A stretch of 64,000 bases of DNA from a virus (lineage: Duplodnaviria > Caudoviricetes). The translations under genes and the position numbers were made by a program. The number at the start of each line of letters is the position of its first letter. Positions within the stretch are counted from its first letter, which is position 1. This document shows positions 6,595-63,499 of this stretch, one piece after another. The notes under the pieces are model-generated. The model saw nothing but the letters and a program-made list of their open reading frames with translations. It ran no database searches and had not been told where the DNA came from. The stretch is taken from IMG/VR virus record IMGVR_UViG_3300032319_001025, positions 64,001 to 128,000 of that record. One strand, written 5' to 3'.

Positions 6595-7278
6595 ATGCCA
6601 ATAATTGGTACTAAATTAGGTATTTTGATTAGGAAAAAAATGATAGAGAACATTTCTGCACTTAGCGGAAAAAGCCCCTCTGACCAACCTAATCCTGAAT
6701 ATTTTAATAATTTTTGTATTGGTCTTGGTAACGGTATAGCTAAAGAAACGCATTTAATTGTTTTTAAAACCGTTGATACTGGATTAATTAATCCTTTAGG
6801 CGGTACTGGTATCGGAACTGGAAAGGGCATTAAATTTAATAGTGATTACATGGTCAAAACGGCATACGAAAAGATACGTTCGGAAGTGATAAGGATGTTT
6901 GGGCATACAACCCATGCTCCATATCCGCCGCCAGCAAAAAATTCTGGCGAATATCTTGTGGCTATTTTAAAAGCTATAGCAGATTCCATAAAAGAGGTAT
7001 ATTCAACAGATTTAATTTTAAATTCAGTTCATTATCCAGTTTGTACTGGTATAGGTTTTATAAAAGAAGGCGGTTTTAGCGGCTTAGTAGAAATAAATAT
7101 AAAAAATTCAATAATTTCAATAATTCCGTCATTTAAAGGTGAGTTTTGGCCAAACTTTGCTGAAATTATTGCAAGCTCTTACGTTGATGCAGTACATAAT
7201 CATTCAACAGCTAAAGTCGTAATAGTAGGTGCTGGTGCGGCACCAGGTAAAGGCACTGGATTTGGTAAAGTAACTTAA
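6595..7278 (+). CDS. virion/baseplate protein
   Basis: In operon after the spike; two internal repeats ending in G-T-G-x-G. Confidence 0.55.
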   Translation: MPIIGTKLGILIRKKMIENISALSGKSPSDQPNPEYFNNFCIGLGNGIAKETHLIVFKTVDTGLINPLGGTGIGTGKGIKFNSDYMVKTAYEKIRSEVIRMFGHTTHAPYPPPAKNSGEYLVAILKAIADSIKEVYSTDLILNSVHYPVCTGIGFIKEGGFSGLVEINIKNSIISIIPSFKGEFWPNFAEIIASSYVDAVHNHSTAKVVIVGAGAAPGKGTGFGKVT

Positions 7279-7300
7279 TTTTATTAATATAGAGACATTT

Positions 7301-9890: not shown

Positions 9891-9923
9891 TTGATTTAAT
9901 TGTTTTTTTTGGTTTAACTTAAT
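9891..9923 (+). promoter_or_regulatory. candidate late promoter TTGATTT-N17-TAACTTAAT (copy 1)
   Basis: Same motif and spacing at 19516-19548. Confidence 0.5.
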
Positions 9924-9958
9924 ATATTAAATATAAGTACAATTTATTTAGGAAGTAG

Positions 9959-19515: not shown

Positions 19516-19548
19516 TTGATTTTGCTATTTTTTTAATAATAACTTAAT
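19516..19548 (+). promoter_or_regulatory. candidate late promoter TTGATTT-N17-TAACTTAAT (copy 2)
   Basis: Same motif and spacing as 9891-9923; intergenic. Confidence 0.5.
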
Positions 19549-19570
19549 CTGATAAGTAAATACACAATTT

Positions 19571-22500
19571 ATGTCGGTTAAACGAAGATTAAAATTTTAC
19601 AGCGGTATTCGTCTTGATATACCACATATTCGTTCGCTAGAATCATCTGTATCTTATGATTTCGATTCGGCTTTGCGTGGTGTTATAACTGGCATATCTA
19701 GTCCATATGTTGTTAGAGGTTTTGATTTTGTTAATGCAACTGGACTACAAGCATCCAATCTTCAAATCAATGTTGCAAATAGCGTTATCTTACATAGCAC
19801 CGCTAGTGAAAGCGGTACAATCTTACAAGTACCTTCAACAGAATCAGTTCAAACATTAAATGCTTTAAACTCTAATGTTATCGGATCATTTCAAAATGGC
19901 GTAATCAACTACGTAGCTTTAGATTACAGAAGAGTTACTGACGAAAACTCAATCGATCAAACTGCTGGATGGTCACCCTCTGAAAAAATAGAGTTTCAAA
20001 GAACAGTGCCCATTTCTTCGGTGCTTGAATATAAGTTTGTAATTACAACTTCTGGCTTCGGCAACCTTTTACCTTTATATATAGTCGGCGTTGATTCAAA
20101 TGGATTTGTAACTTTTGTCACAAACTCTAAGCCTTCTCTATTTAGACTTGGTTCAGGTGGAGCTAATCCTAATCCGTTTAATTCTTTTGCTTTTGGAAAC
20201 CTAACCAATCCACAATCAGGCAACAGAAGAGAATATATTTACACTGGTTCAAGCACTACAAATCCTGTAAGTGTTTCTCCTGGTGATGATGCTAATGCTT
20301 TTGATTATGGTGACTGGTCTATTCATTCATTAAAAGAATGGATGGATGCAGTAATGACCAGGTTTAAAGAAATAACTGGTTCTGCATATTGGTACATAGA
20401 TAGCAACTTACCTTATGGTCCTGCAAGTTCTTTAAGTTTAGCTAACGTTTGGTTTGATTCTGGCGCTGGATCAGTAATGACTGGTGCTGGAAATATTGCA
20501 TACAATTATGTATTGCAAGCTGACTTAGCTTCTGGTTGGTCAACAGGTGTAACGTCTGGTGATTCGTATATTAAAGGTTCTTTGTCTGGTGCTACTGCTG
20601 TATTAAACTCTGTAATAAGCGATGCGACTTACGATTATTTATTAGTAACTGATGTTATAGGTAGTTTTGATTACGGCACTCCAGAACCTATCGTTAATAG
20701 AAGAATATTTAGACATAATTCGAGCTTATTTAATTTAACTACTTTCACTAGTGGCGGCTCGAGATATGCAATTTATCAAAGAATTCCAGTTTCAACTGCG
20801 ACTACTGTTGCAGCTACATTAGCTTCTGGACCTGGAACAGATGAGTATACAGTTACTTCAGCAGGCCATGGTTTATCTAATGGTAATATAGTTTGCATTA
20901 TAAACGGTACAAATAAAAAAGTAGTTTACGTACAAAATGCTGCGGCCAATACCTTCACTTTTAAAACGAAATACTTAAATGGTGTTGCAGTAGGTGCAAT
21001 TACACTGGCTAAAGTAACAGCTCAAGTAGACCAAAGCAAACATCCTTTTAAGTATAACTACACTTCTGGTGCAAGTTTTGATTTAGAAGTTAAAGACGCT
21101 AGCCCAGAAGCATATAATACATTTGACATATCTGCAAGTGCTTATTCTCCAGTTGATTTTGTTTACTCAATTGGTTCTAGTAGTTTGCCTGCACCTATTG
21201 ATGGTTCCGGCCCTATTATTTTTGATGGTGAAGTAACAAGTTCAAATGTTTCACCAGTTGGTGATTTGCCAGCAGGCGCTACATCTAATCCATATAACGG
21301 CCCAGTAAGTTGGGATAGCGACATATACATTAAAGGTATTGTAGGCAATAGATATTTTAAAGTACCTTCAACTGCTACCGCAGACCCTGCTGGAACTGCT
21401 GACATTTACGGAGCTGGCACTGCTTACTTAGAAAATGGTGAAGTAGCCTATATAGTTTTAGATAGAAATCAACCCGTAAGTAGCAGTCAATTGTTTTCAT
21501 GTGTTGCTGGCGGCCCAATAGTCGGATCTTCTACGCCAGTTGATTCTAGTGGTAATCCATTAGTAGCTGGCGACTTTGTTAAGTTTGCAAACGAAAGCGA
21601 TCAATACTGGCTAAAAATTGACAGTATTATAGGAAATACAATAACTGTAGTAAACGACAGCGGCGGAGCAGTTTCAACATTACAAAGACCTGCTAATAGC
21701 GGAGTTCTTTTGTATTCTAAAGGTTCTTACAGTACTGTTTATGTTGCACCACATTGGCAAGTAAATGCTAGCATTGATACTTACTGGTTAGCAGTTAGAA
21801 GAGACTTCTCTGGTGTTTCAAAAGTTTACTTTAGAGCATTAGAATTACAGCCTGGTGAATCAAGAACTATAAATGATAATCAATCAAATAATATTTTGAT
21901 TTATACTGGAGCTGGAACTGAAGCCGCTACCTCGCCTAACTATAGTCAAATAGATAACGGCCAATGGAGTAAAACCCAAACTCTAAAACTTCAATCATCA
22001 AACGCTATTGATACTTACAGCAAGCAAATAAGCTTTGTTGCAGCACCAAATCTTGGCTTCCAAAAAGAAGATAAACTCCAAGATGCTTCGGGCAATTTAT
22101 ATACTATTGAATCACTATTAACTAGTAAGACTGTTATAGTTAAAGAAGACGTTTCTGCATTAGTTAGTGGTGCGACCATAACTTATTATAGAATTAACTA
22201 CGCTATTGGCGAATCAGATAATTTGACACTAGCTGCTAGAAAAGAAGACAGGGAACTTGCAAAAGTTAATACTGAACTTTCAAGACCTGTATACGATGAA
22301 TCTGTCTATGTTCAAGACATGCCTTTAACTCTAAATCCAGGTAAAAATCTTAAGTCTGGAAGTTTTGTATATATTGGTACTCAAAATGCTCCAACCGCAC
22401 TAGCTTGGGTATTGTATGGTACTAGTGCTCAAACAGAAACTATTGAAGGTTCTTCAATAACAATGCCTGGAGGTTCTGTTTTTGGTGCAGGTAATTCATT

Positions 22501-23557
22501 AGTTCATATTTATAGCTCTGGTACAAATGGTGGATTTACTCACGGCTCTACAGTTTATCAAAATGGCGTGGCAATAGGTACTGTTAATAATGTTGCAAAT
22601 CCTGATTTTACAGCCCCTGCCATTTTAGCAACAAACTCTGTTGAAATGGTTTTACCGCCAAATAGAAGAACACAGGTTGTTAATGGCTCTACTTACTTAA
22701 CTTGGCCATCTAATTCGTTCTACAGTAAAGGCGATAGCTATTTATCTGGAGAAGATTTATTAGTTATTGCTAACGATAGCATTAGAGAAGCTAATATTGA
22801 CTATACTGAGACATTTGGCGGACCTAAAGCTAAAATTAGGATTGATAGAGACTTACCAGCCAATACAAGAATCAGGTTTAGGTCTTTAGGAACAGTTGGT
22901 TCTCCAGTTCACTCGAGCGGTGCTGGTATTATCGATTTACAATCTTCTTATAGTGCTGGCAACACAATTAATACATCTCTTTCAAACCCAGTTACTGTTA
23001 CAGCGACTGGAGCTGATACCGCTATTTCATTGACTGGTAATTTAGAAATCAATGGTGGCGGAACTAACGGTATATTTGGTAACACCGATCAAAATTTTGT
23101 AATTGGCGATGAAACAAATAAGCCAGCAGAATCTTGGACAGCTAAAGAATTTGTAAAAACTCATGCAAACTGGGCTAGCTCAGCGTGGTCTAATAAAACA
23201 GCGGTTCAAGTAACAACTAACAGTTCTCCTACTATTGTAACAGGTTCTGGTATTACAGTTAACACCAGTACAGTTGTTAGAGTTTGCATGACTGCTGTTG
23301 GCAGATCGAATACCAGTACTGGATATGCCTCGTTTAGAATTGAAGGTATGTTTAAACGAGAAGCTGGAAACGTTGTAGCAATTGGTTCGCCGATTAGTAC
23401 TATTATAGGTCAAGAAAATGATGGTACTTCCACCTCATTTATTTTTGGCGTTATGAATCCCGATACAATTTACGGTATATTAATTGGTAATCCATCTGTT
23501 CAGTTTAACTGGGCAACAACTATTGAATGGCAAGCAGTTAAAGATAGTGCTCCTTAA
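19571..23557 (+). CDS. large baseplate/tail fibre structural protein
   Basis: 1328 aa, Ser/Thr/Gly/Asn-rich beta composition, position between wedge and fibres. Confidence 0.65.
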   Translation: MSVKRRLKFYSGIRLDIPHIRSLESSVSYDFDSALRGVITGISSPYVVRGFDFVNATGLQASNLQINVANSVILHSTASESGTILQVPSTESVQTLNALNSNVIGSFQNGVINYVALDYRRVTDENSIDQTAGWSPSEKIEFQRTVPISSVLEYKFVITTSGFGNLLPLYIVGVDSNGFVTFVTNSKPSLFRLGSGGANPNPFNSFAFGNLTNPQSGNRREYIYTGSSTTNPVSVSPGDDANAFDYGDWSIHSLKEWMDAVMTRFKEITGSAYWYIDSNLPYGPASSLSLANVWFDSGAGSVMTGAGNIAYNYVLQADLASGWSTGVTSGDSYIKGSLSGATAVLNSVISDATYDYLLVTDVIGSFDYGTPEPIVNRRIFRHNSSLFNLTTFTSGGSRYAIYQRIPVSTATTVAATLASGPGTDEYTVTSAGHGLSNGNIVCIINGTNKKVVYVQNAAANTFTFKTKYLNGVAVGAITLAKVTAQVDQSKHPFKYNYTSGASFDLEVKDASPEAYNTFDISASAYSPVDFVYSIGSSSLPAPIDGSGPIIFDGEVTSSNVSPVGDLPAGATSNPYNGPVSWDSDIYIKGIVGNRYFKVPSTATADPAGTADIYGAGTAYLENGEVAYIVLDRNQPVSSSQLFSCVAGGPIVGSSTPVDSSGNPLVAGDFVKFANESDQYWLKIDSIIGNTITVVNDSGGAVSTLQRPANSGVLLYSKGSYSTVYVAPHWQVNASIDTYWLAVRRDFSGVSKVYFRALELQPGESRTINDNQSNNILIYTGAGTEAATSPNYSQIDNGQWSKTQTLKLQSSNAIDTYSKQISFVAAPNLGFQKEDKLQDASGNLYTIESLLTSKTVIVKEDVSALVSGATITYYRINYAIGESDNLTLAARKEDRELAKVNTELSRPVYDESVYVQDMPLTLNPGKNLKSGSFVYIGTQNAPTALAWVLYGTSAQTETIEGSSITMPGGSVFGAGNSLVHIYSSGTNGGFTHGSTVYQNGVAIGTVNNVANPDFTAPAILATNSVEMVLPPNRRTQVVNGSTYLTWPSNSFYSKGDSYLSGEDLLVIANDSIREANIDYTETFGGPKAKIRIDRDLPANTRIRFRSLGTVGSPVHSSGAGIIDLQSSYSAGNTINTSLSNPVTVTATGADTAISLTGNLEINGGGTNGIFGNTDQNFVIGDETNKPAESWTAKEFVKTHANWASSAWSNKTAVQVTTNSSPTIVTGSGITVNTSTVVRVCMTAVGRSNTSTGYASFRIEGMFKREAGNVVAIGSPISTIIGQENDGTSTSFIFGVMNPDTIYGILIGNPSVQFNWATTIEWQAVKDSAP

Positions 23558-25719: not shown

Positions 25720-26166
25720 ATGATCAGCAAAGACGAAATTTTAATGGGTAGAGATAAGCAATATCCTGATGAATACACTGAAGAAATATCCAATAACGTT
25801 GATCAGTTATTAGAAATAATGAATCAAGTCCGTAAAGCTTATAATAAGCCTATGATAGTAGCCTCTGGCTGGAGACCTTCCGCAATTAATGAAGGAACAT
25901 CTAACGCAGCTAAGAATTCTAATCATTTAAAAGGTCTTGCAGTAGATATTAAAGATACGGATGGAAGTCTTTGGAAATGGGTCCTAATGAATTTAGGGCT
26001 AATGAAAAAATTAGGGATATATTTTGAAGACAAGAGATGGACCCCAACTTGGGTTCATTTTCAAATTGTACCACCTAAGTCTAAAAAAAGAATCTACGTA
26101 CCTTCAACCGCACCTGCTAAAGCTGAGGATATTTGGGACGGGAAATACGATCCAAAATATAATTAG
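25720..26166 (+). CDS. endolysin, peptidase M15 (Zn D-Ala-D-Ala peptidase fold)
   Basis: 'SGWR', 'SNHLKGLAVDI' (SxHxxGxAxD) and 'WVHFQ' zinc ligands. Confidence 0.85.
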   Translation: MISKDEILMGRDKQYPDEYTEEISNNVDQLLEIMNQVRKAYNKPMIVASGWRPSAINEGTSNAAKNSNHLKGLAVDIKDTDGSLWKWVLMNLGLMKKLGIYFEDKRWTPTWVHFQIVPPKSKKRIYVPSTAPAKAEDIWDGKYDPKYN

Positions 26167-26168
26167 CT

Positions 26169-26387
26169 ATGTATCGAACAATCGAAAGCTGTCGAGCTGT
26201 CATCCAAAAATATTTGGGTAGATATGGAACTTTGGCACCGCATGAAGCCGAAGAACTAGAAAGAGCCTACCAGGAAATAAAGGATATACAGAAAAATTGT
26301 ACACATAGTTTTAACGAGTTTACATGCTTTTCATCTAAAATAATGCAGTGTAAATATTGTATGCTTAAAATGGATGATTACGGCTGA
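26169..26387 (+). CDS. hypothetical protein (Cys/His-containing)
   Basis: 72 aa, last + strand gene before the convergent junction. Confidence 0.55.
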   Translation: MYRTIESCRAVIQKYLGRYGTLAPHEAEELERAYQEIKDIQKNCTHSFNEFTCFSSKIMQCKYCMLKMDDYG

Positions 26388-39050: not shown

Positions 39051-39164
39051 ATTATGATCATTAATTTGTAAAACCGTTCCTGATTCGCCATCTAAAAAAA
39101 TGTAAAAACTTGAAAAATCTAATTTGCCAAAACCGTATACTTTAATTTTATCGTTTTCATTCAT
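38847..39164 (-). CDS. hypothetical protein with chimeric C-terminal TM segment
   Basis: Start reassigned to ATG 39164; C-terminus derives from a copy of 39790-39871. Confidence 0.55.
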   Translation of the reverse strand: MNENDKIKVYGFGKLDFSSFYIFLDGESGTVLQINDHNNTVFLHVEGRGKVMVHGRQCELDSKFKNVVRLLKKEASIFWKLFFAYVAIKVIIGIAFILKILFFYM

Positions 39165-39171
39165 AACCAAT

Positions 39172-39199
39172 ATTATACAGAAAATTGATAAAAAATCAA
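39172..39199 (-). promoter_or_regulatory. sigma-70 promoter, leaderless
   Basis: TTGATT-N16-TATAAT, 7 nt to ATG 39164; overlaps ATTGAT-N5-ATCAAT palindrome. Confidence 0.55.
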
Positions 39200-45973: not shown

Positions 45974-48900
45974 TTAAGCTGTTTTATATCTGTCTTCTTC
46001 TTTTTCGCTGGTAAGACTTATGACCTTATCTAATTGAAATCGTTTATTATTTGCAAAATAATACGCAATAACTAGTTTATCTTGAAATCCATGAGGTGCT
46101 TCTGACACTTCGGAATCATACGGCGGCCAGAGTACTTCTTTAGTAAAGACACCGTTAAAATCTATTATAAGTTCTGTAGCTTGTTTTGTTTTGTTTTTAT
46201 ATGTAAAGCATCTTTCTTTTACTACATATCCAATTCCAGCATATACAATATTTTTATATATTTTACCGTTTTTTTGAGCTTCTTTTGCTGCTTCAAGTTC
46301 TTGACCGCTTAAAACTTGTACACCATTTTCTGTATACCAAGAAAATCCTTTTTTGATCCCATACCTATTAGACATTATTAACGGTCTAACGTCCTCACTG
46401 TAAATACTAATAAGTTCTTTTTTCATTAAAAATTTACCCAAAGAAGTTACACCTATTAGCTCTTCTGGAACAGATTTTATAGATTCTTTCCTTATTTCAG
46501 CTTTTAATTTTTCAAATTCATATAATTTATTTTCAATGTCTATGTTTGGGTCAGGTAGAATAGAATCTAATACACCAGTAATGATAAGCTTCCTGCTTAT
46601 ACCAGAGTTTACCGCGCTTCTAATACCTTTTTCTTTAGAGTGGTTTTTAATAACATAATCTTCTAAGTTTGAATATGGAGAATTAGCTATAAGCTGATTA
46701 AAAGCTTTTTCACCAACGCCGTTAATTATAGAAAACGGCGCTACAAGCTTGTCGCCAACAATTTTGTAATCACCGCCAGAATTATTAATATCGGGCATTC
46801 TGATAGAATCAGAAATATATGGCCAAAACTTGTGGGCAAGCTCATCCTTGCTCGAGTTTGATAAGACTGACTTCCACCAATCTAATGGATAGTTTGTTTT
46901 TAAGTACATACACGCATAGGCGACATAAGCATATGAAATTGCATGAGATTTATTAAAACTATAACGAGAAGATGCCATTATCTGTTCTATTAAAAGCTTA
47001 ACTTGATCTTCAGACCAACCTCGATCTAAGCACGAATCTTTTAATCTTTTGGTTGCTACTGAAAGTAACTTCTCGTCTTTTTTACCAATGGCTCTTCTAA
47101 CGTCTTCAGCTTGTTCAGCTGTAAAACCAGCAAGCTCTCTAAAAATTTGAATTGTTTGTTCTTGGAACAAATTAATACCCACGGTGTCTTTTAAAATAGG
47201 TTCTAGGTCTTTATGTATATAAGTAATCGATTCGCCGTTTTTTCGCGCTACATAAACTTCAGCTAAAGTTCTACCATCTCCAAATGGTGCATCAAGAGTT
47301 CCTGGTCTTGCCAATGATGTAATAGATGCTAAATCTTCTATGCTTTTAGGTTTAATACTAATAAGAAAAGGTTTAACGGTTTCTGTATCAAACTGAAACA
47401 CAGTTTCTGTTCTACCGATCTGAAATGACCCAAAAGATTTTTCACAATGTGGTAGATTCCATGGATCTATTTTAATGTTTAATCTTTCTTTTATTGACTC
47501 TAAGCACCCTTGAATATCGACAAGAGTATTTAATCCTAAAAGATCGTATTTTACTAATCCAGCTAATTCAACTGACTTTGGCGAGAATCCAGTTAAAACA
47601 ACATCGTTGATTTTAATTACTGGGCAATAATTTTGTATGGGTTCATTAGCGATTACGACTCCGCAAGCATGGCTGCTTTTTTGACGTATAATACCTAGCA
47701 TTTCAGTAACAGATTGCCAAATCTTGGGATTGTTTTTAGCGTATTTTTTTAATTCTTGGTTTTGCTCTATAAGACCTTGGTGATAGTTTCCATTAGAATC
47801 CGTAAACCCTTTAACGAATTCTTTACTGTCAACTCCTTGTGGTTCAGATGGTAGGGATTTACACAATTTTTCGGTTTCGTTTGTAACTGTACCAAGTATG
47901 GCTCTTTCTGCATCTTTAATAGATGACTTAAGCTTTAATAAGCTGTCTGTAGAAATTCTGCAAAAACCGTCTTTATATTTGCTTTGTAAATACTCAATAA
48001 CTCTATCTCTACCTGTAGCTGAAATATCAATATCAACGTCAGGTAAAGTATTAGCTTTAATACGTCCAAGAGTTAAAAATCGTTCGAAGGATAAATTATG
48101 TTTTAATGGATTAACCGCACTAACTCCTAAAAGATAAAGCAATAATGAACCGCCAGCACTACCTCTAACGTTAATTAAAATATTGTTTTCTTTACAAAAA
48201 TTAGCCATATCTTCTACTGTAAAAAAATATGACAAAAGATTCATTTTTCCATTTTTTGCTAGAATGTCGATTTCCATTTTTAATCTATCTAGCATTTCTT
48301 TATTCGACCAATCCATGCGTCCATGTCGGTCAATCTTAACTTTAAGTTCTTTTAGCCAATCTGTATTGATTTCTGGTAAAACCCATCTATCTGAATTTGT
48401 TTCTATATTAAATTCGTTAAAATTGGATGCAAAATCATAAGAATTATCTACAAGTTCTTCAATATCTTTATCTGATAAGTTTAACGTGTGCTTTAGTTCT
48501 TCAGCAGCTTCATCGGTGCTTATGATATGATAAGATTGATGAAATTTCCAAAGTTCTTGTCCATTGCCAAGTCTGGCATCTTGAGTAAGTTTTTGCTCTT
48601 TCCATGCAAAATGTGAATCCAAAGAAATAATGGCTTTATCACCATATTTTTTAGCCATTTCAAGAACAAACTTGTTTGCTACCTTTTGAATATCTCCATC
48701 GATAGCAATATTGTTGCAACCAATCGGAACAAACTCGCCTGGAGTTATTATTTTACCTTCTGGGCTTTTTTTAGGAGATTTCCAATTATGAGTAATTTGG
48801 TGGGGAAACACTTCAACAAAAAAATTATTTGGTCCTGCAAGTTCTCTTAGCATGCAGTATGCTTTTTCAGCTAGTTTAGGTTCGCTTGTATTAAATTTAG

Positions 48901-49423
48901 TATAAATCATTGATTGTACTGCGCCAACTAAACAACTAGAACCTAAAGTTATATGGCCAGATATCTTTTGAAGCTCTTCCCATTTCAAAACTGGCTTTCT
49001 TTCTCCAAATTTAACTACAGCTCTTTCTTCCATTAATGGAGTTAATTGACAAAAATATCTGTACGCTACTACGTCTTTAAAATGAATAGTTAAATGTACG
49101 TAATGATTTTTTAATTTAGATTCTACTTTTTGACGTTTTTTTTCTAGATTTTTTTCATCTATAGTTTTTTCATAGTATTCTCTATAAAAATCTAAAAATG
49201 GAGTTTCTACGTATGCTTCAATTCCAAGAATTGGCTTTACATTTAATTTTTTGCAGAGGTAAAAAAGTTCCATTGCTGAATTCATGTTTCCATGTTCAGT
49301 TAGGGTTACATGTGTAGCTCCAAGCTCAATATTTCTTTTGATTATTTGTTGTACAGTAGCAGCCCCGTCCAGGCTATAATGAGAATGGGAATGTGGAGAA
49401 ATTAATTGTTTGAATTTAGCCAT
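45974..49423 (-). CDS. dnaE: DNA polymerase III alpha subunit (family C)
   Basis: PHP 'HSHSHYSLDG', 'RGSAGGSL', 'PDVDID', 'HACGVVI', 'KYDLLGL', 'FQEQ', 'YSFNKSHA'. Confidence 0.95.
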   Translation of the reverse strand: MAKFKQLISPHSHSHYSLDGAATVQQIIKRNIELGATHVTLTEHGNMNSAMELFYLCKKLNVKPILGIEAYVETPFLDFYREYYEKTIDEKNLEKKRQKVESKLKNHYVHLTIHFKDVVAYRYFCQLTPLMEERAVVKFGERKPVLKWEELQKISGHITLGSSCLVGAVQSMIYTKFNTSEPKLAEKAYCMLRELAGPNNFFVEVFPHQITHNWKSPKKSPEGKIITPGEFVPIGCNNIAIDGDIQKVANKFVLEMAKKYGDKAIISLDSHFAWKEQKLTQDARLGNGQELWKFHQSYHIISTDEAAEELKHTLNLSDKDIEELVDNSYDFASNFNEFNIETNSDRWVLPEINTDWLKELKVKIDRHGRMDWSNKEMLDRLKMEIDILAKNGKMNLLSYFFTVEDMANFCKENNILINVRGSAGGSLLLYLLGVSAVNPLKHNLSFERFLTLGRIKANTLPDVDIDISATGRDRVIEYLQSKYKDGFCRISTDSLLKLKSSIKDAERAILGTVTNETEKLCKSLPSEPQGVDSKEFVKGFTDSNGNYHQGLIEQNQELKKYAKNNPKIWQSVTEMLGIIRQKSSHACGVVIANEPIQNYCPVIKINDVVLTGFSPKSVELAGLVKYDLLGLNTLVDIQGCLESIKERLNIKIDPWNLPHCEKSFGSFQIGRTETVFQFDTETVKPFLISIKPKSIEDLASITSLARPGTLDAPFGDGRTLAEVYVARKNGESITYIHKDLEPILKDTVGINLFQEQTIQIFRELAGFTAEQAEDVRRAIGKKDEKLLSVATKRLKDSCLDRGWSEDQVKLLIEQIMASSRYSFNKSHAISYAYVAYACMYLKTNYPLDWWKSVLSNSSKDELAHKFWPYISDSIRMPDINNSGGDYKIVGDKLVAPFSIINGVGEKAFNQLIANSPYSNLEDYVIKNHSKEKGIRSAVNSGISRKLIITGVLDSILPDPNIDIENKLYEFEKLKAEIRKESIKSVPEELIGVTSLGKFLMKKELISIYSEDVRPLIMSNRYGIKKGFSWYTENGVQVLSGQELEAAKEAQKNGKIYKNIVYAGIGYVVKERCFTYKNKTKQATELIIDFNGVFTKEVLWPPYDSEVSEAPHGFQDKLVIAYYFANNKRFQLDKVISLTSEKEEDRYKTA

Positions 49424-49461: not shown

Positions 49462-49695
49462 TTACATATTATTTTTAACTTTTCTTAAAGAGGATTCTAG
49501 GATTTGCTTGTAAGCTTCGGGAGTTAAATTCAAAACCCTACATATGAATTTTACTGGAGCGCCTTCAGGATATTTTTCTAATGCCATATTAAGACTATTG
49601 AGCAATTTTTTATTGCAAATAAAATCGACATCTTCTGAAAGACGTGCTTTATCGTTTTCTGAAACGTATGACATTTGTAAAATTTTTTCTAGCAT
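49462..49695 (-). CDS. stand-alone sigma-70 region 4.2-like HTH protein
   Basis: 'ICRVLNLTPEAYKQILESSLRKVK' vs RpoD '[24 protein letters not shown]'. Confidence 0.6.
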   Translation of the reverse strand: MLEKILQMSYVSENDKARLSEDVDFICNKKLLNSLNMALEKYPEGAPVKFICRVLNLTPEAYKQILESSLRKVKNNM

Positions 49696-50080
49696 CTATC
49701 TTCTTCTGTATTTCGTTAATCTTTTTCTGTACTTGTTCTAGTAATAATATATCACAATTTATAGATTTTCTTTTTTCATCTATAAATTTAATGAAAAATT
49801 TTTTACTTGAAACTATCGTTTTGAATTCCCTAATAGACACTATTGTTGATTTGTTGCTTTTTAAATTATTGATAACATTAGATAAATTTACTAAATCTCT
49901 TTCGGCATTTTTAAGATCAATCTCTTCGCGTGCTATGCGAGTTTTGATTGTTCTAAATTTACAAAAAGTTTCCTCAAAACTAATATAGAGCTTAATTAAT
50001 TCGGCATCGTCTGTATCTGGTATCCAAATTTTTTTTGACATTTTATTTCTCATTGCCGTCAATTCTTTTTCTATAGTCAC
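49649..50080 (-). CDS. coiled-coil hypothetical protein
   Basis: Heptad-rich ORF in operon. Confidence 0.6.
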   Translation of the reverse strand: MTIEKELTAMRNKMSKKIWIPDTDDAELIKLYISFEETFCKFRTIKTRIAREEIDLKNAERDLVNLSNVINNLKSNKSTIVSIREFKTIVSSKKFFIKFIDEKRKSINCDILLLEQVQKKINEIQKKIDARKNFTNVIRFRKR

Positions 50081-50405
50081 ATTCTTTACAGAAAGAATAA
50101 GTTTTATTTAATAAAATCAATATTTCTACGTTAAAAGCTTTACACTTTTCACATTGTAACATATTAGCTTGCGGCTTTTCATTAAAAAGCTCTTCTTCTA
50201 ACGCTCTTCTGTTTTTACGTACCTGTTTTTTTTCCTTATGTTTTTTAACAAAATTTTCATTTTGTAAACAATACTCTTCGTATTTTCTTAAACGGGAAAC
50301 TTCTTTTTTAAGCTCTCTTACTATTTTCTGCAAGCTACGTATTTCGCCGTGAAAATCTTCTTTTTCTTCTTTAAATGACCGATATCGCTTATCTTTTTTA
50401 AACAA
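50043..50405 (-). CDS. coiled-coil + C-terminal zinc ribbon protein
   Basis: CEKC...CKEC. Confidence 0.6.
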   Translation of the reverse strand: MFKKDKRYRSFKEEKEDFHGEIRSLQKIVRELKKEVSRLRKYEEYCLQNENFVKKHKEKKQVRKNRRALEEELFNEKPQANMLQCEKCKAFNVEILILLNKTYSFCKECDYRKRIDGNEK

Positions 50406-50550
50406 AGCAGAATCCTTTTATAAAATACATATAAAAGATTAAGATAACGACATAATAAATAATAATATAATGATTACAATTATTTATATTGTTTTTTGAT
50501 GTGTGTTATAGGAAATTTGTGGTAGTAATGAGATAATTTTATAAAAGTTC

Positions 50551-57191: not shown

Positions 57192-57429
57192 TTGTGTCTG
57201 CTCTGCTTTTGTCGTTTCTTTCGCCCATCAATTCTTCAACATTATGTATTCTTTCAACGGCCCTACTCATTGCGCCGTTATCTAATCTTTCATAAACAAC
57301 TGTAGTACCAACTTTAGGTACAAACAAAGAAGGTTCATTACATTTTTTACATGGCATAGTTTTTTCTCTTTTAGGCAATGATGCCTTAAAAGTGCCATGA
57401 GTATTACATTTATAAGTAAACCAGCCCAT
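57175..57429 (-). CDS. FmdB-like zinc-ribbon protein
   Basis: 'FTYKCNTHGTF...PCKKC'. Confidence 0.6.
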   Translation of the reverse strand: MGWFTYKCNTHGTFKASLPKREKTMPCKKCNEPSLFVPKVGTTVVYERLDNGAMSRAVERIHNVEELMGERNDKSRADTNEPDE

Positions 57430-59186
57430 TATTCTCTAAGACCAGCACCTTTTTCAAAACGCCTTACGAATCTTTCTTCTTCCTTATCTGATTGATCATC
57501 TCTTTTAAATGCTATTAAGCCGCCCATTGTACCTAAAAGCGAGGCTATAGACATACTATTTCTAATGGCTTCTAGTACAGCGGGGGCAGAATCTAGAACA
57601 TCAATTCTGTCTCTCCATTCATACTCAGAAAGATCAAAAGTTTGATCATCTTTTTGTAATAGTTGACCAATCATACTATCTATTTCTTGTTCGTTAAATC
57701 CATAGTTTTTATATAATATTTTTACTGGTTCAACTAAAGCATCCGAAAGAATATTAATTGCAATTTTCCTACATTCATTTTTTTCTTTTCTACCAAGTTC
57801 TAGTAAGTCTGCTGCAATTCTAACTAGTGTGTAACCTCCGCCTGGCACAGCACCGTATTTAACGGCTCCTCTAATTGCCATCCAAGCATCTTCTGCTCTG
57901 TCTCTTTTTTCTCGAGTTTCACCTTGGCTTAATCCGTAAATATTTAAACGTGCAATCCCACTAGTTAATTTTCCTATTCTAACGTCTAATTCGTGTGCTT
58001 CATATTGGCTTTCTGGTTTTTCTCTTCTTAACTTTAGCTCTTGAACTCTAGTTTCAATTAAGCTTTCATCCTCATCCACCATTATTGAACTTCTAAATCT
58101 TCCAACCTCAATATTTTTTACACGATTTCTTTTAATTAAAAAATCGATGTTCATGTCTATAAGAGGTCTGTCGATTGGGTTAAACACAGGAGACCCAGTA
58201 TATGCTTGTAAATCGTAAAGCTGCTCAGTTCTTGAATTTATTGTAGCAGATTGTGTGGTTACAATTGGAAAAACTTTAAATGTCCCTTTATTCCAGTTAA
58301 GATGCAAATCTCCAACTACACTATCAGAAAACCCGTGCGAAACTACTACAATTCCTGTTGTAAGATGTGAATTTTCTGCAAAATATTGACCAATTTTGTT
58401 CATTGGTTCTAAGATTTGAGAAATATCATTAATAGTACCGTCAAATAAAAGAACAAGAGGTTTTTCTAGAACAACCATTGTTCCGCTTTTATCATTAATA
58501 AACCCAGTTGAAAAATTTCTACAAGATTCTTCGTACCCTTTATCTAGGGTATATCCAGATATTTTTTCAATTTCATACTTAGATGGGCCTGTTGCTTCAA
58601 TAATAGTGATATTGCCCTCATCACCTACAGTATTAAAAGATTCAATGATTGCATCAGCAAGTTCTTTATCCCCATTTGCTGATAGTGTGGCAACTTTATG
58701 TAGAATAGATTCTGAATTTTCACCATCAACTTTAATTTTATAAGAATCTATAACTTCGGAAATATAAGGGATTAGGTTCTGTAATTCCCTGACTATTTTT
58801 TGGGGGCTAAGTTTTGGATTTTTTTCAACTAATTTAGAAGTTCTTTTGGTAATACTTTCAGCAAGAATTGTAGCTGTAGTGGTTCCATCTCCAGCTTCGG
58901 AAGCTGTTCTGACAGCAGCATCTCTAACAGCCTCTAACACCAACTGTTGAGTTGCGGATTCATAACCTAAATTTTTAATAACAGTAACACCGTCTTTTGT
59001 CATTATAGGTTTTAATCCAATTTCTGGTCTTTCAATTAAAACCTGTCTTCCTCCAGGTCCAAGTGTAGCTCCAACCATTTTTGCAATGTGTTCCATCGTT
59101 TCTAAAACAATGTTTTTAAGTTCTTGACCTGGTGCAACCATTACTTTAGAAGCAGATTTTGGTTTATTAACTTGAAAAAGACTCAT
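57429..59186 (-). CDS. groEL: phage chaperonin GroEL
   Basis: TLGPGG, TKDGVTV, GDGTTTAT, 'EKRDRAEDA', G.VPGGG; no GGM tail. Confidence 0.93.
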   Translation of the reverse strand: MSLFQVNKPKSASKVMVAPGQELKNIVLETMEHIAKMVGATLGPGGRQVLIERPEIGLKPIMTKDGVTVIKNLGYESATQQLVLEAVRDAAVRTASEAGDGTTTATILAESITKRTSKLVEKNPKLSPQKIVRELQNLIPYISEVIDSYKIKVDGENSESILHKVATLSANGDKELADAIIESFNTVGDEGNITIIEATGPSKYEIEKISGYTLDKGYEESCRNFSTGFINDKSGTMVVLEKPLVLLFDGTINDISQILEPMNKIGQYFAENSHLTTGIVVVSHGFSDSVVGDLHLNWNKGTFKVFPIVTTQSATINSRTEQLYDLQAYTGSPVFNPIDRPLIDMNIDFLIKRNRVKNIEVGRFRSSIMVDEDESLIETRVQELKLRREKPESQYEAHELDVRIGKLTSGIARLNIYGLSQGETREKRDRAEDAWMAIRGAVKYGAVPGGGYTLVRIAADLLELGRKEKNECRKIAINILSDALVEPVKILYKNYGFNEQEIDSMIGQLLQKDDQTFDLSEYEWRDRIDVLDSAPAVLEAIRNSMSIASLLGTMGGLIAFKRDDQSDKEEERFVRRFEKGAGLRE

Positions 59187-59329: not shown

Positions 59330-59358
59330 ATTTTACAATAATAACAAACATTAATCAA
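59330..59358 (-). promoter_or_regulatory. sigma-70 promoter of the groEL operon
   Basis: TTGATT-N17-TAAAAT. Confidence 0.65.
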
Positions 59359-59984
59359 GTAAAAGCTTTTTTACCAAGAATCGTTATTGCTTTCTCATCG
59401 CCATCAAACCATTTATCTTTCAATTTATAGTACATATCATACATTTCTTTACTCATTATGTTGTTTTTGAAAAGTTCGTAAAGATTTGTAAATATTGGCT
59501 GTATTCCAGAATCATCATTTTCTCTGGCAAACCATCCAGGAGATACGTTATATTCATTTTGATTTATCTTAGGTCTGAAATCGTTTTTCCAACCAATTGA
59601 ATCTTTTGGTTTTTCTTCACAGTGGTTAGCTAAAAAAATTCTAAAACATCTAATTATTCTATCTGAATAAAATTTTTGACGCTCACTGCCAGTGTTTTTG
59701 CTTGAATCATAATAATGTTTTGTAATTCTTGCAATAAAACCAGCATCTTCTAAATATTTAATATGCCTTTGAACTGTTCTTAAGCTTAATTGCAAAACTT
59801 CTGCAATCATTTTATCGTGAAATTTTACATCACCATTGTTATTGTAACTTCTTACTTCAAGTAAATGCAGAATAAGCTTACTTTTAGGGTGTAATTCGTT
59901 CTCATCCTTAAACCTATCAGTCATCGATAAGAACTTTTGTTTAAACTTACCATCGGTAAATTTAGAAAAGCCAATTTTAAACAT
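59355..59984 (-). CDS. winged-HTH protein (replication-initiator/regulator-like)
   Basis: 'IAEVLQLSLRTVQRHIKYLEDAGFI'; AAGGAG RBS. Confidence 0.7.
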   Translation of the reverse strand: MFKIGFSKFTDGKFKQKFLSMTDRFKDENELHPKSKLILHLLEVRSYNNNGDVKFHDKMIAEVLQLSLRTVQRHIKYLEDAGFIARITKHYYDSSKNTGSERQKFYSDRIIRCFRIFLANHCEEKPKDSIGWKNDFRPKINQNEYNVSPGWFARENDDSGIQPIFTNLYELFKNNIMSKEMYDMYYKLKDKWFDGDEKAITILGKKAFT

Positions 59985-60641: not shown

Positions 60642-60724
60642 ATGGTATATATAATTAATATTCTTGTAAATAACGCAAAATTCATACCAAATAACTTTTA
60701 AAGTTTTCTGTTTTACTATATAAT
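60642..60724. promoter_or_regulatory. divergent promoter pair
   Basis: Minus: TTTACA-N17-TACCAT (60670..60642), 6 nt to ATG 60635; plus: TATAAT 60719-24, 8 nt before ATG 60733. Confidence 0.6.
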
Positions 60725-60732
60725 GACAACAA

Positions 60733-62145
60733 ATGACTATTAAGGAACCAGTAAAAATTTATTTACCAGTCGTAGATAATGAAGTTAAGCGTTTTCTTAC
60801 GTTTATGGATAGGTCCGTAAACTATCAAATTTACAAGATAAAAAACAACTTTAGATGGGCATCAGGAGATCCAGAGGGTCATGCGGATAGAATTAAACAA
60901 CTTAAAGAACAATCAGTTAAAACATTGATTTTTAAAGATGATTTTGGTGAATACACTTATAGCGGCTTAGTTTCTGATTTAAAACAAAGGTTTAAATGGG
61001 AATTAAAAAATGAAATATATTATCCAGAACCTAAGCTTATACCTTGGGATAAGCAGCCAGAGTTTGAATTAAGACCGTATCAAAAAGAGGCTGTAGAGGC
61101 TTTAAAAGCTGTCAAACATGGCGCTGTAGAGCTACCAACTGGTAGCGGAAAATCTGCTTGTATAACCGATTTAATCAAGAATTATGGCCTAAAAACTTTA
61201 CTAATGACACCGAGCCGTTCAATAACTGAACAGCTTTATCACGATTTATGTTTAAGATTTGGAAAAAAGAGGGTTGGTAAGTTTAGCGGAACCAAAAAAG
61301 AAGTTAATAAGTTAATAGTGGTGGCTACTGGACAGTCTTTAACAAGACTTAATAAGGAAAGCAAAGAATATCAAGAGCTTTCTAACACTGAAGTTTTTAT
61401 AGCCGATGAATCTCATTCTGTACCAGCAGAAACATTTGAAGCCGTATGTATGGGCGTGGCAGCAAAAGCCCCTTATAGATTCTTCTTTAGTGCAACGCAA
61501 TTAAGAACTGATGGCTCAGAAATGATTTTAAAAGGCATTACAGGGCCAGTTGTATATAGAAAAACCTTTAAAGAGCTTGTTTCAGAAGGATACTTAGCTA
61601 ATCCAAAATTTAGAATTTTTAGAGTTGACTCAAATGGTAACACTAACAGGCAAGATGTTAATCAAGAAACAAGAAAGCAGCTTTTTGAAAACCCAAACGT
61701 AGCAAAGCTTGCAGCTGATATAGCTGATAAATCAGTTCAAGGTGCAAACCGTAAAACCCTTATTATTATTGATGAGTTAGTTCAGTACGATTTACTAAAT
61801 AATTATTTAAAAACCAAACACGAATTTATTTGTGGAGCAACACCGCAAGCAAAAAGAGCTGAAATCATTAAAGATTTTAATGAAGGAAGTTTAATGCTAT
61901 TAATTGGAACTTCTGCAATTAGTACAGGGGTTGACCTTAAGCCTACAAGTTCGTTAATATACCTACAGGGCGGAATGAGCGAAATTCAGGTAAAACAAGC
62001 TATTGGAAGAGGAACTAGAATTTTTCCAGGTAAAACCGATCTGTGGGTCTCTGATTTTATGGTTTTAAACTCTAAGCATATGGAAAGACATACTAAAGTC
62101 AGAATGAAAATTTATGAAACGCTTGGAGAAGTAAAGGTAATTTAA
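60733..62145 (+). CDS. SF2 DNA helicase (UvsW/XPB-like)
   Basis: LRPYQ, PTGSGKS, DESH, SAT, 'STGVD', QAIGRGTR. Confidence 0.9.
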   Translation: MTIKEPVKIYLPVVDNEVKRFLTFMDRSVNYQIYKIKNNFRWASGDPEGHADRIKQLKEQSVKTLIFKDDFGEYTYSGLVSDLKQRFKWELKNEIYYPEPKLIPWDKQPEFELRPYQKEAVEALKAVKHGAVELPTGSGKSACITDLIKNYGLKTLLMTPSRSITEQLYHDLCLRFGKKRVGKFSGTKKEVNKLIVVATGQSLTRLNKESKEYQELSNTEVFIADESHSVPAETFEAVCMGVAAKAPYRFFFSATQLRTDGSEMILKGITGPVVYRKTFKELVSEGYLANPKFRIFRVDSNGNTNRQDVNQETRKQLFENPNVAKLAADIADKSVQGANRKTLIIIDELVQYDLLNNYLKTKHEFICGATPQAKRAEIIKDFNEGSLMLLIGTSAISTGVDLKPTSSLIYLQGGMSEIQVKQAIGRGTRIFPGKTDLWVSDFMVLNSKHMERHTKVRMKIYETLGEVKVI

Positions 62146-62158
62146 TTAGGATTTAATT

Positions 62159-63163
62159 ATGTCTCAAAAAATATTTTATAGATTTGTTGCTGAGATGAGT
62201 GAAATACTCAATAACAGCACGTTTAATTATGATGATCAAAAAAAGCTTTTAAAAAAGCTTTTTGCTGTTGAGAAAAAGTTTAAAGATACTTTACTCTCTA
62301 CTCCAAATGGCAGAAACGTTTATAAATCTTTTATGAAATTCATTCTTAATGATCAAAAAAACATATTGGCAGCTAGGATTTATTTTAGAGAAAGACAAGA
62401 TACTTTTTCAAATAAAATAGCTAAAGCTTTTCATCAAAACAAACCAGAAAAGCTTTTTAAATTTAGAATCAATTATGTATTTGCTGTATGGGCATGTAAA
62501 AATATAAAAAGAAAAAATAAAAAATTATTGAGACTTTTAGAGGATATGAAAACCTTAAGAAACAATCTTTGCGAAATGAATTTACCTTTAGCTATTAATA
62601 GATCTAAGATTTTTTGGTCTAAAATACCAGATTCCCATCTAGAATACATGGATTTAATACAAACCTCGTCCGAAGGTCTTTTAATTGCTATAGATAAATT
62701 TGTGCCCCCATTTAAGTTAGTTTTCCGTTCTGTTGCAATCGGAAGAATGGTTGCTTACATGATTGAGGATAATAGCGAAACAATAATCAAATTATCCCCT
62801 ACTGAAAGAAGAATACTTTATTTAATAAACAAAGCTAAAAACACTGAAAAAGCTGAAAATGAAGATGAAATTCTTAAATTTGTAAAAAAATCGTTTCCAA
62901 ATGTAACTAAAGAACATTTAAATGAATTAATGAACGCATCAAAAACAGTAAACATTGATATTTCAGCAAACAAGAATGAATCAGATAAAGATTCTATGCA
63001 AAAAAAAGAAGCTGACATTTTTTTTAAGTCTTCAAATAATTTAGAAGAAGACATTGTTAATAATGATTTAAAAAGAAAGCTTGTACCAGCAACAAAAAAT
63101 CTTTCAGTTTTAGAAAAAAAGGTATTATCTTTAACATATGGAATTAATTTTTTAAAGGAGTAA
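62159..63163 (+). CDS. sigma-70-family factor lacking region 4.2
   Basis: 'EMNLPLAI', 'DLIQ...GLLIAIDKF', region 3, region 4.1 'LSVLEKKVLSLTYGI' then stop. Confidence 0.8.
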   Translation: MSQKIFYRFVAEMSEILNNSTFNYDDQKKLLKKLFAVEKKFKDTLLSTPNGRNVYKSFMKFILNDQKNILAARIYFRERQDTFSNKIAKAFHQNKPEKLFKFRINYVFAVWACKNIKRKNKKLLRLLEDMKTLRNNLCEMNLPLAINRSKIFWSKIPDSHLEYMDLIQTSSEGLLIAIDKFVPPFKLVFRSVAIGRMVAYMIEDNSETIIKLSPTERRILYLINKAKNTEKAENEDEILKFVKKSFPNVTKEHLNELMNASKTVNIDISANKNESDKDSMQKKEADIFFKSSNNLEEDIVNNDLKRKLVPATKNLSVLEKKVLSLTYGINFLKE

Positions 63164-63166
63164 ATT

Positions 63167-63499
63167 ATGGAAATTTTTAGTTTAAATGACAGAATTGCAA
63201 TAGAACAGCCAGTTTTTACTAAAATTGAAGCTCAAATAACTAATGGTTTTGCAATGAACTCAAATAGAATTAATTTAATTGAATGCAAAGTTGTATGGAA
63301 ATGCAGAATTAATGACAACCTACTACTAGGTCCTGAAGATACCGTCATTCTCAGAGGCGATGCTGGACTGTATCCATGGGCAAAACAAAAGTTTGTACAC
63401 GAAGGAAAAGAAATCGTTCTATGCCCTAAAACGGACATTATTGGATATAAAAAAGGAAATGTTCAATATTATGAACATGTTGAAATAAAAGGAGCATAA
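63167..63499 (+). CDS. groES: divergent GroES-like co-chaperonin
   Basis: 'FSLNDRIAIE' (PLHDRVIV), 'TNGFAM' mobile loop, 'EDTVIL', 'EGKEIVLCPKTDIIG' (DNEEVLIMSESDILA). Confidence 0.6.
   Translation: MEIFSLNDRIAIEQPVFTKIEAQITNGFAMNSNRINLIECKVVWKCRINDNLLLGPEDTVILRGDAGLYPWAKQKFVHEGKEIVLCPKTDIIGYKKGNVQYYEHVEIKGA

Follow-up and report, generated by a model that had tools for sequence, protein, structure and literature searches.

What becomes of a sigma factor whose gene stops just before the part that reads the -35 box? The question is raised by an open reading frame (ORF) at positions 62159-63163 (+ strand) of a stretch of viral DNA of 64,000 nucleotides (nt). This stretch, referred to below as the window, spans bases 64001-128000 of an IMG/VR virus record that is 144,013 bp long and has direct terminal repeats; the genome is rated 100% complete by CheckV and has a G+C content of 33.7%. 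Sigma factors are normally single chains, in which domain 4 both grips the beta-flap of RNA polymerase and reads the -35 box. Judged by its sequence, the 334-residue product of this ORF is a divergent, long, group-1-like sigma-70 homologue without the helix-turn-helix (HTH) of region 4.2. A preliminary description of the locus had proposed a late sigma factor whose -35-reading function is supplied in trans by a 77-residue protein encoded elsewhere in the window. We favour a modified form of this proposal, to which we assign a probability of about 0.5: the protein would be a middle/late sigma factor independent of the -35 box, and the domain 4 piece provided in trans would anchor it without reading DNA, in a manner functionally like T4 gp55 and gp33.

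A sigma-70 homologue that ends after region 4.1

The homology to sigma-70 becomes apparent at the level of the family rather than of the single sequence. The scan against sigma domain models suggested in the preliminary description fails with the single sequence, which matches no sigma domain in Pfam (Sigma70_r2, missed here, is matched weakly, at 0.0028, by one intein-bearing homologue) and gives a weak match of 1e-6 to the PHROGs family phrog_351, 'RNA polymerase sigma factor'. The comparison succeeds with a profile of 21 diverse family members, which matches RpoD and SigA chains in the PDB with a best E of 1.7e-8. In this hidden Markov model (HMM) alignment, profile positions 125-324 pair with residues 364-564 of E. 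coli sigma-70, and the match ends exactly on 'LTAREAKVLRMRFG', at the RMRFG position. Within it, 'DLIQEGNIGLMKAVDKF' lies opposite 'DLIQASSEGLLEAIDKF' in regions 2.1 and 2.2, and region 3 and the 3.2 linker align with RpoD without a break. The fold of the AlphaFold model (pLDDT 76) agrees with that of Thermus and Taq SigA along the entire chain (about 340-355 columns); the model places helices at residues 189-262, a low-confidence linker at 264-278 and two region 4.1 helices at 294-312 and 317-327, the second of which pairs with 'LTAREAKVLRMRFG'. The region 4.2 HTH is not part of the chain, which ends in ...LSVLEKKVLSLTYGINFLKE, 6 residues past G328. The colinearity with RpoD through regions 2, 3 and 4.1 that had been described before is thus upheld. 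The protein is predicted, with roughly even chances, to bind the core polymerase and direct promoter-specific initiation as a working sigma-70-family factor.

In region 2.3, 'FSTYATWWIRQAI' of RpoD stands opposite 'FRSVAIGRMTLNM' of the family. If the HMM alignment is right, the melting aromatics Y430, W433 and W434 of sigma-70 are replaced with V192, G195 and R196, and the earlier observation that VAIGR takes the place of YATWW holds to the same extent. Residues I194, G195 and R196 are invariant across the family. No second sigma region 2 was detectable in a scan of the whole 144-kb genome. Sub-threshold matches to Sigma70_r2, r4 and r4_2 in that scan were considered as partners and dropped, as Pfam reads them as a resolvase-type HTH_7 and a HTH_36/RepL-like winged helix. 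A 209-residue ORF of the latter type lies at window positions 59355-59984 (-), beside a divergent promoter region, and a 124-residue ORF of the HTH_7 type lies outside the window (genome 142065-142439, +), just after the capsid gene and behind a GGTATAAT site.

The end point of the protein is shared by its relatives. A word-indexed search returned 273 homologues, and the 120 listed among them span 205-368 residues, none with a C-terminal HTH. An exhaustive HMM search at E <= 1e-30 yielded 306 sigma cluster representatives. End points were inspected in the best 150 of these 306: no C-terminal HTH was seen, and most end within about 13 residues of the profile end (about 22 at most, fragments aside). 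All members of an alignment of 21 diverse homologues end a few residues past 'LSxLExKVLxLKxGE'. Likewise, 20 of the 21 sigma copies paired by genome with the small protein stop 0-14 residues past 'L(K/R)xG', the last being cut by a contig end. Residues L315, E319, K321 and G328 of the last helix are invariant or nearly so across the family. As hundreds of homologues share this end point, the stop at the RMRFG position is not decay, as the preliminary description had argued; the sequences indicate that the loss of region 4.2 is conserved family-wide and is no local lesion. No close homologue with an intact region 4.2 was seen among the 120 listed, among the best 150 of 306 or in the cultured Myxococcus phage Mx1.

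A decaying or locally truncated copy without function has nothing in its favour but the missing region itself. This explanation is refuted by the conservation of the end point, which extends down to 31-33% identity, and we give it next to no probability. The ORF is intact, has a ribosome-binding site and is tightly packed in its operon, and inteins, which mark essential conserved sites, occur in region 2 of some homologues. The exceptions in length among the best 150 representatives are 14 long forms with 573-824 residues. Three of them have Pfam matches (P0169, P0236, P0254), and in these an intein lies inside region 2, near sigma residues about 176-225. The three inteins show Hint and Intein_splicing domains, with LAGLIDADG in one case, and are close to the invariant IGR motif. 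In addition, the last glycine is followed in many family members by a short hydrophobic tail (GEIYGIF, GEMFGLF, GELYGIF), which is absent from the window sigma.

The sigma gene is the second in a + strand block that comprises a superfamily-2 helicase, the sigma, a small ORF and a calcineurin-type phosphoesterase, and continues to structural genes. Its TAA stop codon (63161-63163) overlaps the AAGGAG of the next gene, whose ATG follows 3 nt on, at 63167, in agreement with the clean ribosome-binding site and start noted before. Alternative frames past the stop are closed and offer no read-on. The 110-residue ORF that follows (63167-63499, +) was considered as the carrier of region 4.2 and rejected, having no HTH by sequence and no match in Pfam, PHROGs or the PDB. 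This ORF is GroES-like by eye only; a GroEL-type chaperonin is encoded at window positions 57429-59186 (-), with a match to Cpn60_TCP1 at 1.4e-40.

The family comprises at least 306 sequence clusters from genomes of 34-56% G+C, with one cultured member. Some members carry the JGI label 'specialized sigma subunit'. In the literature, we found no description of the family and no paper that remarks on the absence of region 4.2, on the partner gene or on the promoter. Mx1 is the only cultured carrier found, and it is the sole record matched by the sigma (E <= 1e-3) and by the small protein (E <= 10) in a collection of 50,697 phage records. Its protein WNM70309.1, 'putative RNA polymerase sigma factor', is a true homologue of the window sigma, with 335 residues, 33% identity over 304 residues and the same end point. 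The order of helicase, sigma, small ORF and phosphoesterase is also that of the window. In contrast to the window analysis, the annotation of Mx1 gives a putative sigma only and leaves the absence of region 4.2 unremarked, and the sigma is not discussed in the Mx1 genome paper. An 80-residue homologue of the 77-residue protein, unannotated in the record, is encoded at OR576727.2 complement 157455-157697, in the gap just upstream of the DNA polymerase III alpha gene.

The 77-residue protein as a candidate partner

The gene of the 77-residue protein sits directly upstream of dnaE. A word-based search with the protein returned only six close relatives. When 21 long sigma-bearing records were searched with a profile, each of the 21 proved to encode a homologue (E 1e-7 to 1e-31), followed at every locus by dnaE in the same orientation. 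The co-occurrence with the truncated sigma that had been raised as a point to check is therefore observed in 21 of 21 genomes.

We read the 77-residue protein as a free-standing domain of the sigma-4/GerE type. A profile of 25 members matches the C-terminal GerE-type HTH of NarL at E = 0.0025 and region 4 of WhiG at E = 0.16. Applied to the single proteins, Pfam gives scattered weak HTH matches, including Sigma70_r4 in 1 of 25 (0.009) and GerE in 2 of 25. The neighbours in the ESM Atlas are viral clusters of proteins with 74-79 residues, in which PF04545 is assigned to 63% and 83% of the members. The model of the small protein has a pLDDT of 86; Foldseek returned no match to it at E <= 0.001, and a profile-profile comparison with the sigma family indicated no relation. 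A search for related loci with the small protein or its alignment gave no usable match. No fused sigma-plus-HTH form or longer protein holding the small-protein domain was found, in a search that we rate as weak evidence.

On alignment with NarL/GerE-type domains, the small protein has, in our reading, its own helix before the HTH ('NSLxKLLERYPDG'); the split is therefore not a clean cut at the border between regions 4.1 and 4.2. Its positions 59, 61, 63 and 64 correspond to R584, R586, R588 and Q589 of sigma-70. Positions 59-64 are mostly Glu or Asp across the 25 members, 15 of which are acidic proteins with an isoelectric point (pI) of 4.5-5.8. The window copy has P, A, K and Q at the four contact positions. 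Many of the small proteins end in (M/L)(K/G)V(E/K)(L/V)D, a tail that is absent from the window copy.

One complex prediction was made for sigma residues 272-334 and the small protein, with alignments for both. The interface score ipSAE was 0.67 (0.69, 0.66 and 0.67 in the runs), compared with 0.02 for the best of three controls with unrelated proteins. For comparison, this mark is reached by 58 of 80 solved complexes and, among mismatched pairs, by 2 of 110. The runs agree in at least 98% of the contacts, and the pLDDT of the partner is at least 73. In the model, V322, L325 and L318 of the sigma lie against I51, L55, Y62, I65, L66 and S69 of the small protein; according to our mapping of residues onto sigma-70, this predicted arrangement corresponds to the canonical way in which the 4.1 helix and the HTH core are packed together. 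The model supports binding of the small protein to the last helix of the sigma. A comparison by eye of the sigma tail with the small protein for covariation, in 21 genome pairs, was uninformative. As a candidate trans partner, the protein thus gains ground from the modelled docking on the last helix; the -35-reading role given to it in the preliminary description fares differently, as the upstream regions show.

A one-box promoter-like motif

Upstream motifs were collected from crude gene calls (longest non-overlapping ORFs) by counting k-mers upstream of the called starts. The most enriched 8-mer is CTTAATCT, which has 18 copies in the genome, 17 of them on the + strand. Intergenic DNA makes up roughly 5% of the genome and holds 15 of the 18 copies. 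All 15 point towards the next gene, and their first base lies 12-60 nt ahead of its called start. Among the products of the genes behind these sites are virion structural, tail-spike or fibre-like, and tail-sheath proteins. One copy also precedes the operon of the small gene and dnaE, and the earlier label of a 'late' sigma is too narrow in this respect. The motif consensus is aaCTTAATCTtwtA, in which TAATCT keeps T-12, A-11 and T-7 of TATAAT.

Relatives of the phage have similar arrangements. In an 83%-identical relative, a motif copy is found at a nearly equal distance downstream of the sigma gene (7654 vs 7648 nt), and another, about 12 kb upstream of the sigma on the other strand, matches in distance the window copy ahead of the small-gene/dnaE operon. 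Distant relatives show no enrichment of the exact 8-mer CTTAATCT and have variants of their own. The complete relative G018 has a sigma with 43% identity, and its leading upstream motif is CCTAATCTTAT, also given as CCTAATCT, with 29 sites of which 25 are intergenic and 24 co-oriented. A 34%-identical relative with 54% G+C has gaCAATCTT ahead of many starts.

Upstream of the motif, between -60 and -5, no position is conserved in either of the two AT-rich genomes (<=0.3 bit each), and in G018 the motif often lies right behind the stop codon of the previous gene. Some copies of CTTAATCT end only 7-19 nt ahead of start codons; the motif can therefore not be a -35 box and is a proximal element. 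With no conserved upstream element, a -35 reader has nothing to read. We infer that the motif sites are one-box promoters without a -35 box and that they are read by the window sigma, given that the genome has no other sigma-like gene, that region 2.3 of the sigma is altered and that the motif core is conserved across the sigma-bearing clade.

Other upstream sequences were noted. TAAATAGT is enriched upstream of genes and was dropped because its position and orientation are inconsistent. G018 has a second upstream motif, GGTATAAT(A), with 11 upstream copies of 19 in the genome, which is probably a host-type early promoter class. In Mx1, GGATCTT is not claimed as an equivalent of the motif, as many copies lie in the spacer of host-type TTGAC...TAGTAT promoters. 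Several intergenic sites have the form TTGAC-N6-7-GGATCTT-cccc-TAGTAT (for example, record positions 89332, 89715, 102745, 106817, 107840 (-)); GGATCTT is conserved within the spacer of this -35/-10 pair, and its ATCTT resembles the motif core of the AT-rich relatives.

The features discussed are collected in Table 1. The site ahead of the helicase gene is a possible early promoter of the helicase-sigma operon. Many TATAAT sequences lie only 5-8 nt before called starts, for example at window positions 60719-60735 and 26158-26171 (+) and 39163-39177 (-), and one CTTAATCT ends 7 nt before a start; these distances suggest that leaderless or near-leaderless mRNAs are common in the phage. The first gene behind the CTTAATCT site of the small-gene operon is a 120-residue ORF (window 50043-50405, -) with a coiled-coil N-terminus and a C-terminal CxxC...CxxC pair.

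Table 1. Positions, in window coordinates, of the sigma gene, its candidate partner and associated elements
Feature	Position	Strand	Basis
Superfamily-2 helicase, first gene of the sigma operon	60733..62145	+	Pfam ResIII, DEAD, Helicase_C; same order in Mx1
Sigma-70-family factor, 334 residues: N-terminal domain and regions 2, 3 and 4.1, without 4.2	62159..63163	+	Profile, fold, family length
Codons of V192-A-I-G-R196, opposite Y430-A-T-W-W434 of sigma-70 (region 2.3)	62732..62746	+	HMM alignment
Codons of L315-G328, final conserved helix ('LSVLEKKVLSLTYG', region 4.1), on which the 77-residue protein is predicted to dock	63101..63142	+	Alignment to 'LTAREAKVLRMRFG', complex model
Free-standing 77-residue sigma-4/GerE-like HTH protein, candidate trans partner	49462..49695	-	ORF, profile, complex model
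dnaE, DNA polymerase III alpha, 1149 residues, downstream neighbour of the small gene	45974..49423	-	Mx1 annotation; tblastn, 21 loci
CTTAATCT ahead of the operon of 120-residue ORF, 143-residue ORF, 77-residue gene and dnaE	50436..50443 (genome 114443)	-	Promoter-like motif
CTTAATCT, starting 28 nt and ending 20 nt upstream of the 1328-residue ORF 19571-23557	19543..19550	+	Promoter-like motif
CTTAATTT, variant with one mismatch, 27 nt ahead of a gene start	7274..7281	+	
CTTAATAT, variant with one mismatch, 41 nt ahead of a gene start	9918..9925	+	
Host-type promoter-like site, TTTAAA-16 nt-TATAAT, 8 nt before the helicase start	60697..60724	+	Consensus match only; overall, the scan does not exceed shuffles

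Competing explanations and known systems

In the reading that we prefer, the sigma of a large clade of Mx1-like phages with contractile tails has lost the region 4.2 HTH for good. The host RNA polymerase would make the sigma early from the helicase-sigma operon. The sigma would then redirect the host core enzyme to middle/late promoters of one proximal element without a -35 box, represented by aaCTTAATCTtwtA in the window phage and by CCTAATCTTAT and gaCAATCTT in relatives. Its last amphipathic 4.1 helix would pack on the HTH of the separate protein of 65-80 residues, giving a domain-4-like module made of two chains. The place of this module would be on the beta-flap, where it would order the sigma 3.2 linker without reading bases, in the way that gp33 acts beside gp55 in T4. 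We infer that the two proteins bind one another and that the pair acts in this way on the polymerase. Anchoring is the most likely role, rather than base reading, because the DNA-contact positions of the small protein are unconserved and mostly acidic. More tentatively, at somewhat less than even odds, domain 4 may be assembled from two chains with -35 reading given up, the small subunit being a separately timed licence for one-box middle/late transcription. A similar degree of caution applies to the extension of the two-chain arrangement to a widespread, almost wholly uncultured phage clade, in which the sigma would provide region 4.1 and a free 4.2-like protein of 65-80 residues the rest.

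Several points weigh against this reading. The link between sigma and motif is a presumed one, drawn from sequence, and simple k-mer counting in Mx1 revealed no clear equivalent of the motif. Since the modelled packing is the canonical one, the passing score may reflect memory of solved sigma-4 structures; in addition, the controls were not other HTH proteins, and the gap in ipSAE therefore says nothing on specificity. Structural comparison of the small protein alone by VIA-align gives Z <= 3.7 overall, and the sigma-4 chains (SigW, SigL, SigF and region 4 of SigA) are at Z of about 2.0-2.2, with a root-mean-square deviation of 2.2-3.0 A over 36-39 residues. The co-occurrence in 21 of 21 genomes concerns a single clade, in which any two core genes would be found together, and the synteny of the small gene is with dnaE; the sigma gene, at a distance of 12.5 kb, does not share in it. 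Finally, the subclade of small proteins to which the window copy belongs is basic (pI 8.6-9.7) and keeps K63 and Q64, which still allows some DNA contact in the window phage.

The same observations bear on the alternatives. The most serious of these, which we consider unlikely though well above the others, is that the sigma works alone, with its 4.1 stub binding the beta-flap tip directly. It would then behave as sigma-70 without region 4.2 does at extended -10 promoters, or as gp55 does in the basal transcription of T4, and the 77-residue protein would be an unrelated small HTH regulator or a factor of the replication module that happens to belong to the core genes of the clade. Promoters of one element need no -35 reader, and sigma-70 without region 4.2 reportedly initiates at extended -10 promoters, a result attributed to Kumar et al. 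in 1993. The constant dnaE neighbourhood, a co-occurrence that does not discriminate within one clade and, as weak evidence, the want of a fused form also suit a solitary sigma. Against it stand the complex model, which is far above its controls, and the conserved hydrophobic face of the last helix, which in every full sigma-4 is buried against the HTH. In addition, the nearest named neighbours of the small protein are sigma region 4 families.

That the 77-residue protein instead completes domain 4 in trans and reads a -35-like element, so that a two-piece sigma would serve bipartite promoters, was the original proposal, and we now regard it as improbable. The docking model and the sigma-4/GerE type of the HTH are compatible with it, as are the basic character of the window subclade and the presence of K63 and Q64 at two base-contact positions. 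However, neither of two genomes has a conserved element upstream of the motif, which in G018 often directly follows a stop codon; the motif itself is too near the starts, at 7-19 nt, to be the -35 box; and the base-contact positions are Glu or Asp in most of the family. Less probable still is an action of the small protein on the host, in which a 4.2 look-alike would bind region 4 of the host sigma or the beta-flap and shut off host or early -35-dependent transcription, like T4 AsiA or SPO1 Gp33. A precedent exists in SPO1 Gp33, which binds sigma-A region 4 and inhibits early transcription (PMC13401047), most members of the small-protein family are acidic-surfaced, and we would expect the modelled docking on a 4.1-type helix to extend to the host helix. 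The 4.1 helix of the host is, however, already covered by its own HTH, whereas the phage sigma offers a free one. On balance, a sigma independent of the -35 box with a non-reading anchor in trans remains the reading that we prefer.

As far as the sequences and the model indicate, a whole family has shed the reading half of domain 4, and a small protein is predicted in its place without DNA-contact residues. If true, this would be a second, independent route to a division of labour of the T4 gp55/gp33 type; in contrast to the T4 pair, it would be recognisably derived from a group-1-like sigma of the ordinary kind and could throw light on the origin of such systems. The promoter and sigma would form a compact, portable pair with a possible protein 'key', which could serve as an orthogonal expression switch. 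For Mx1 and Myxococcus xanthus, the proposal gives a concrete transcription programme that can be tested and that includes the unannotated 80-residue gene.

The closest functional likeness is to T4 gp55/gp33/gp45. Both systems have a phage sigma without the -35-reading domain and promoters of one element (in T4, the TATAAATA box read by gp55). Both also have a separate small, largely acidic helical protein, proposed here to take the place of sigma region 4 on the beta-flap, and in both the small gene lies among replication genes. T4 gp33 'clamps onto the flap tip helix as sigma R4', has no DNA binding of its own and is 'not structurally related' to sigma R4 (PMC7892883). In contrast, the small protein of the window is sigma-4/GerE-like by sequence and is predicted to bind the sigma's own 4.1 helix. 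The sigmas differ likewise: gp55 is minimal, whereas the window sigma is long and group-1-like, with 1.2-like, 2, 3 and 4.1 regions, and its PHROGs family, phrog_351, is a general sigma family. PHROG scans turned up no gp55 or gp33 family, no direct comparison being made, and the likeness is functional only. A genome scan for DnaN domains detected no clamp of this type, whereas activation in T4 involves the gp45 clamp.

The SPO1 proteins Gp33, Gp34 and Gp28 resemble the window system in that small phage sigmas act together with a small accessory protein, which is in contact with the beta subunit and with sigma region 4 (PMC13401047). They differ in that Gp33 binds and inhibits region 4 of the host sigma-A, and no sequence relation to it was seen. 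E. coli sigma-70 cut before region 4.2 shares with the proposed mechanism the initiation without 4.2 given an extended proximal element, and the motif C-Y-TAATCT resembles a -10 hexamer with two added upstream bases. That truncation is a laboratory construct, whereas the state of the window sigma is natural and conserved, and is combined with VAIGR for YATWW and a candidate partner in trans. The sigma-O/RsoA system of B. subtilis (YvrI/YvrHa) is alike in that the sigma function is split over two polypeptides that must meet. In the work of MacLellan et al. in 2009, the split is said to separate a region-4-bearing protein from a region-2-bearing protein. The split in the window system instead falls inside domain 4, and its small piece probably reads no DNA.

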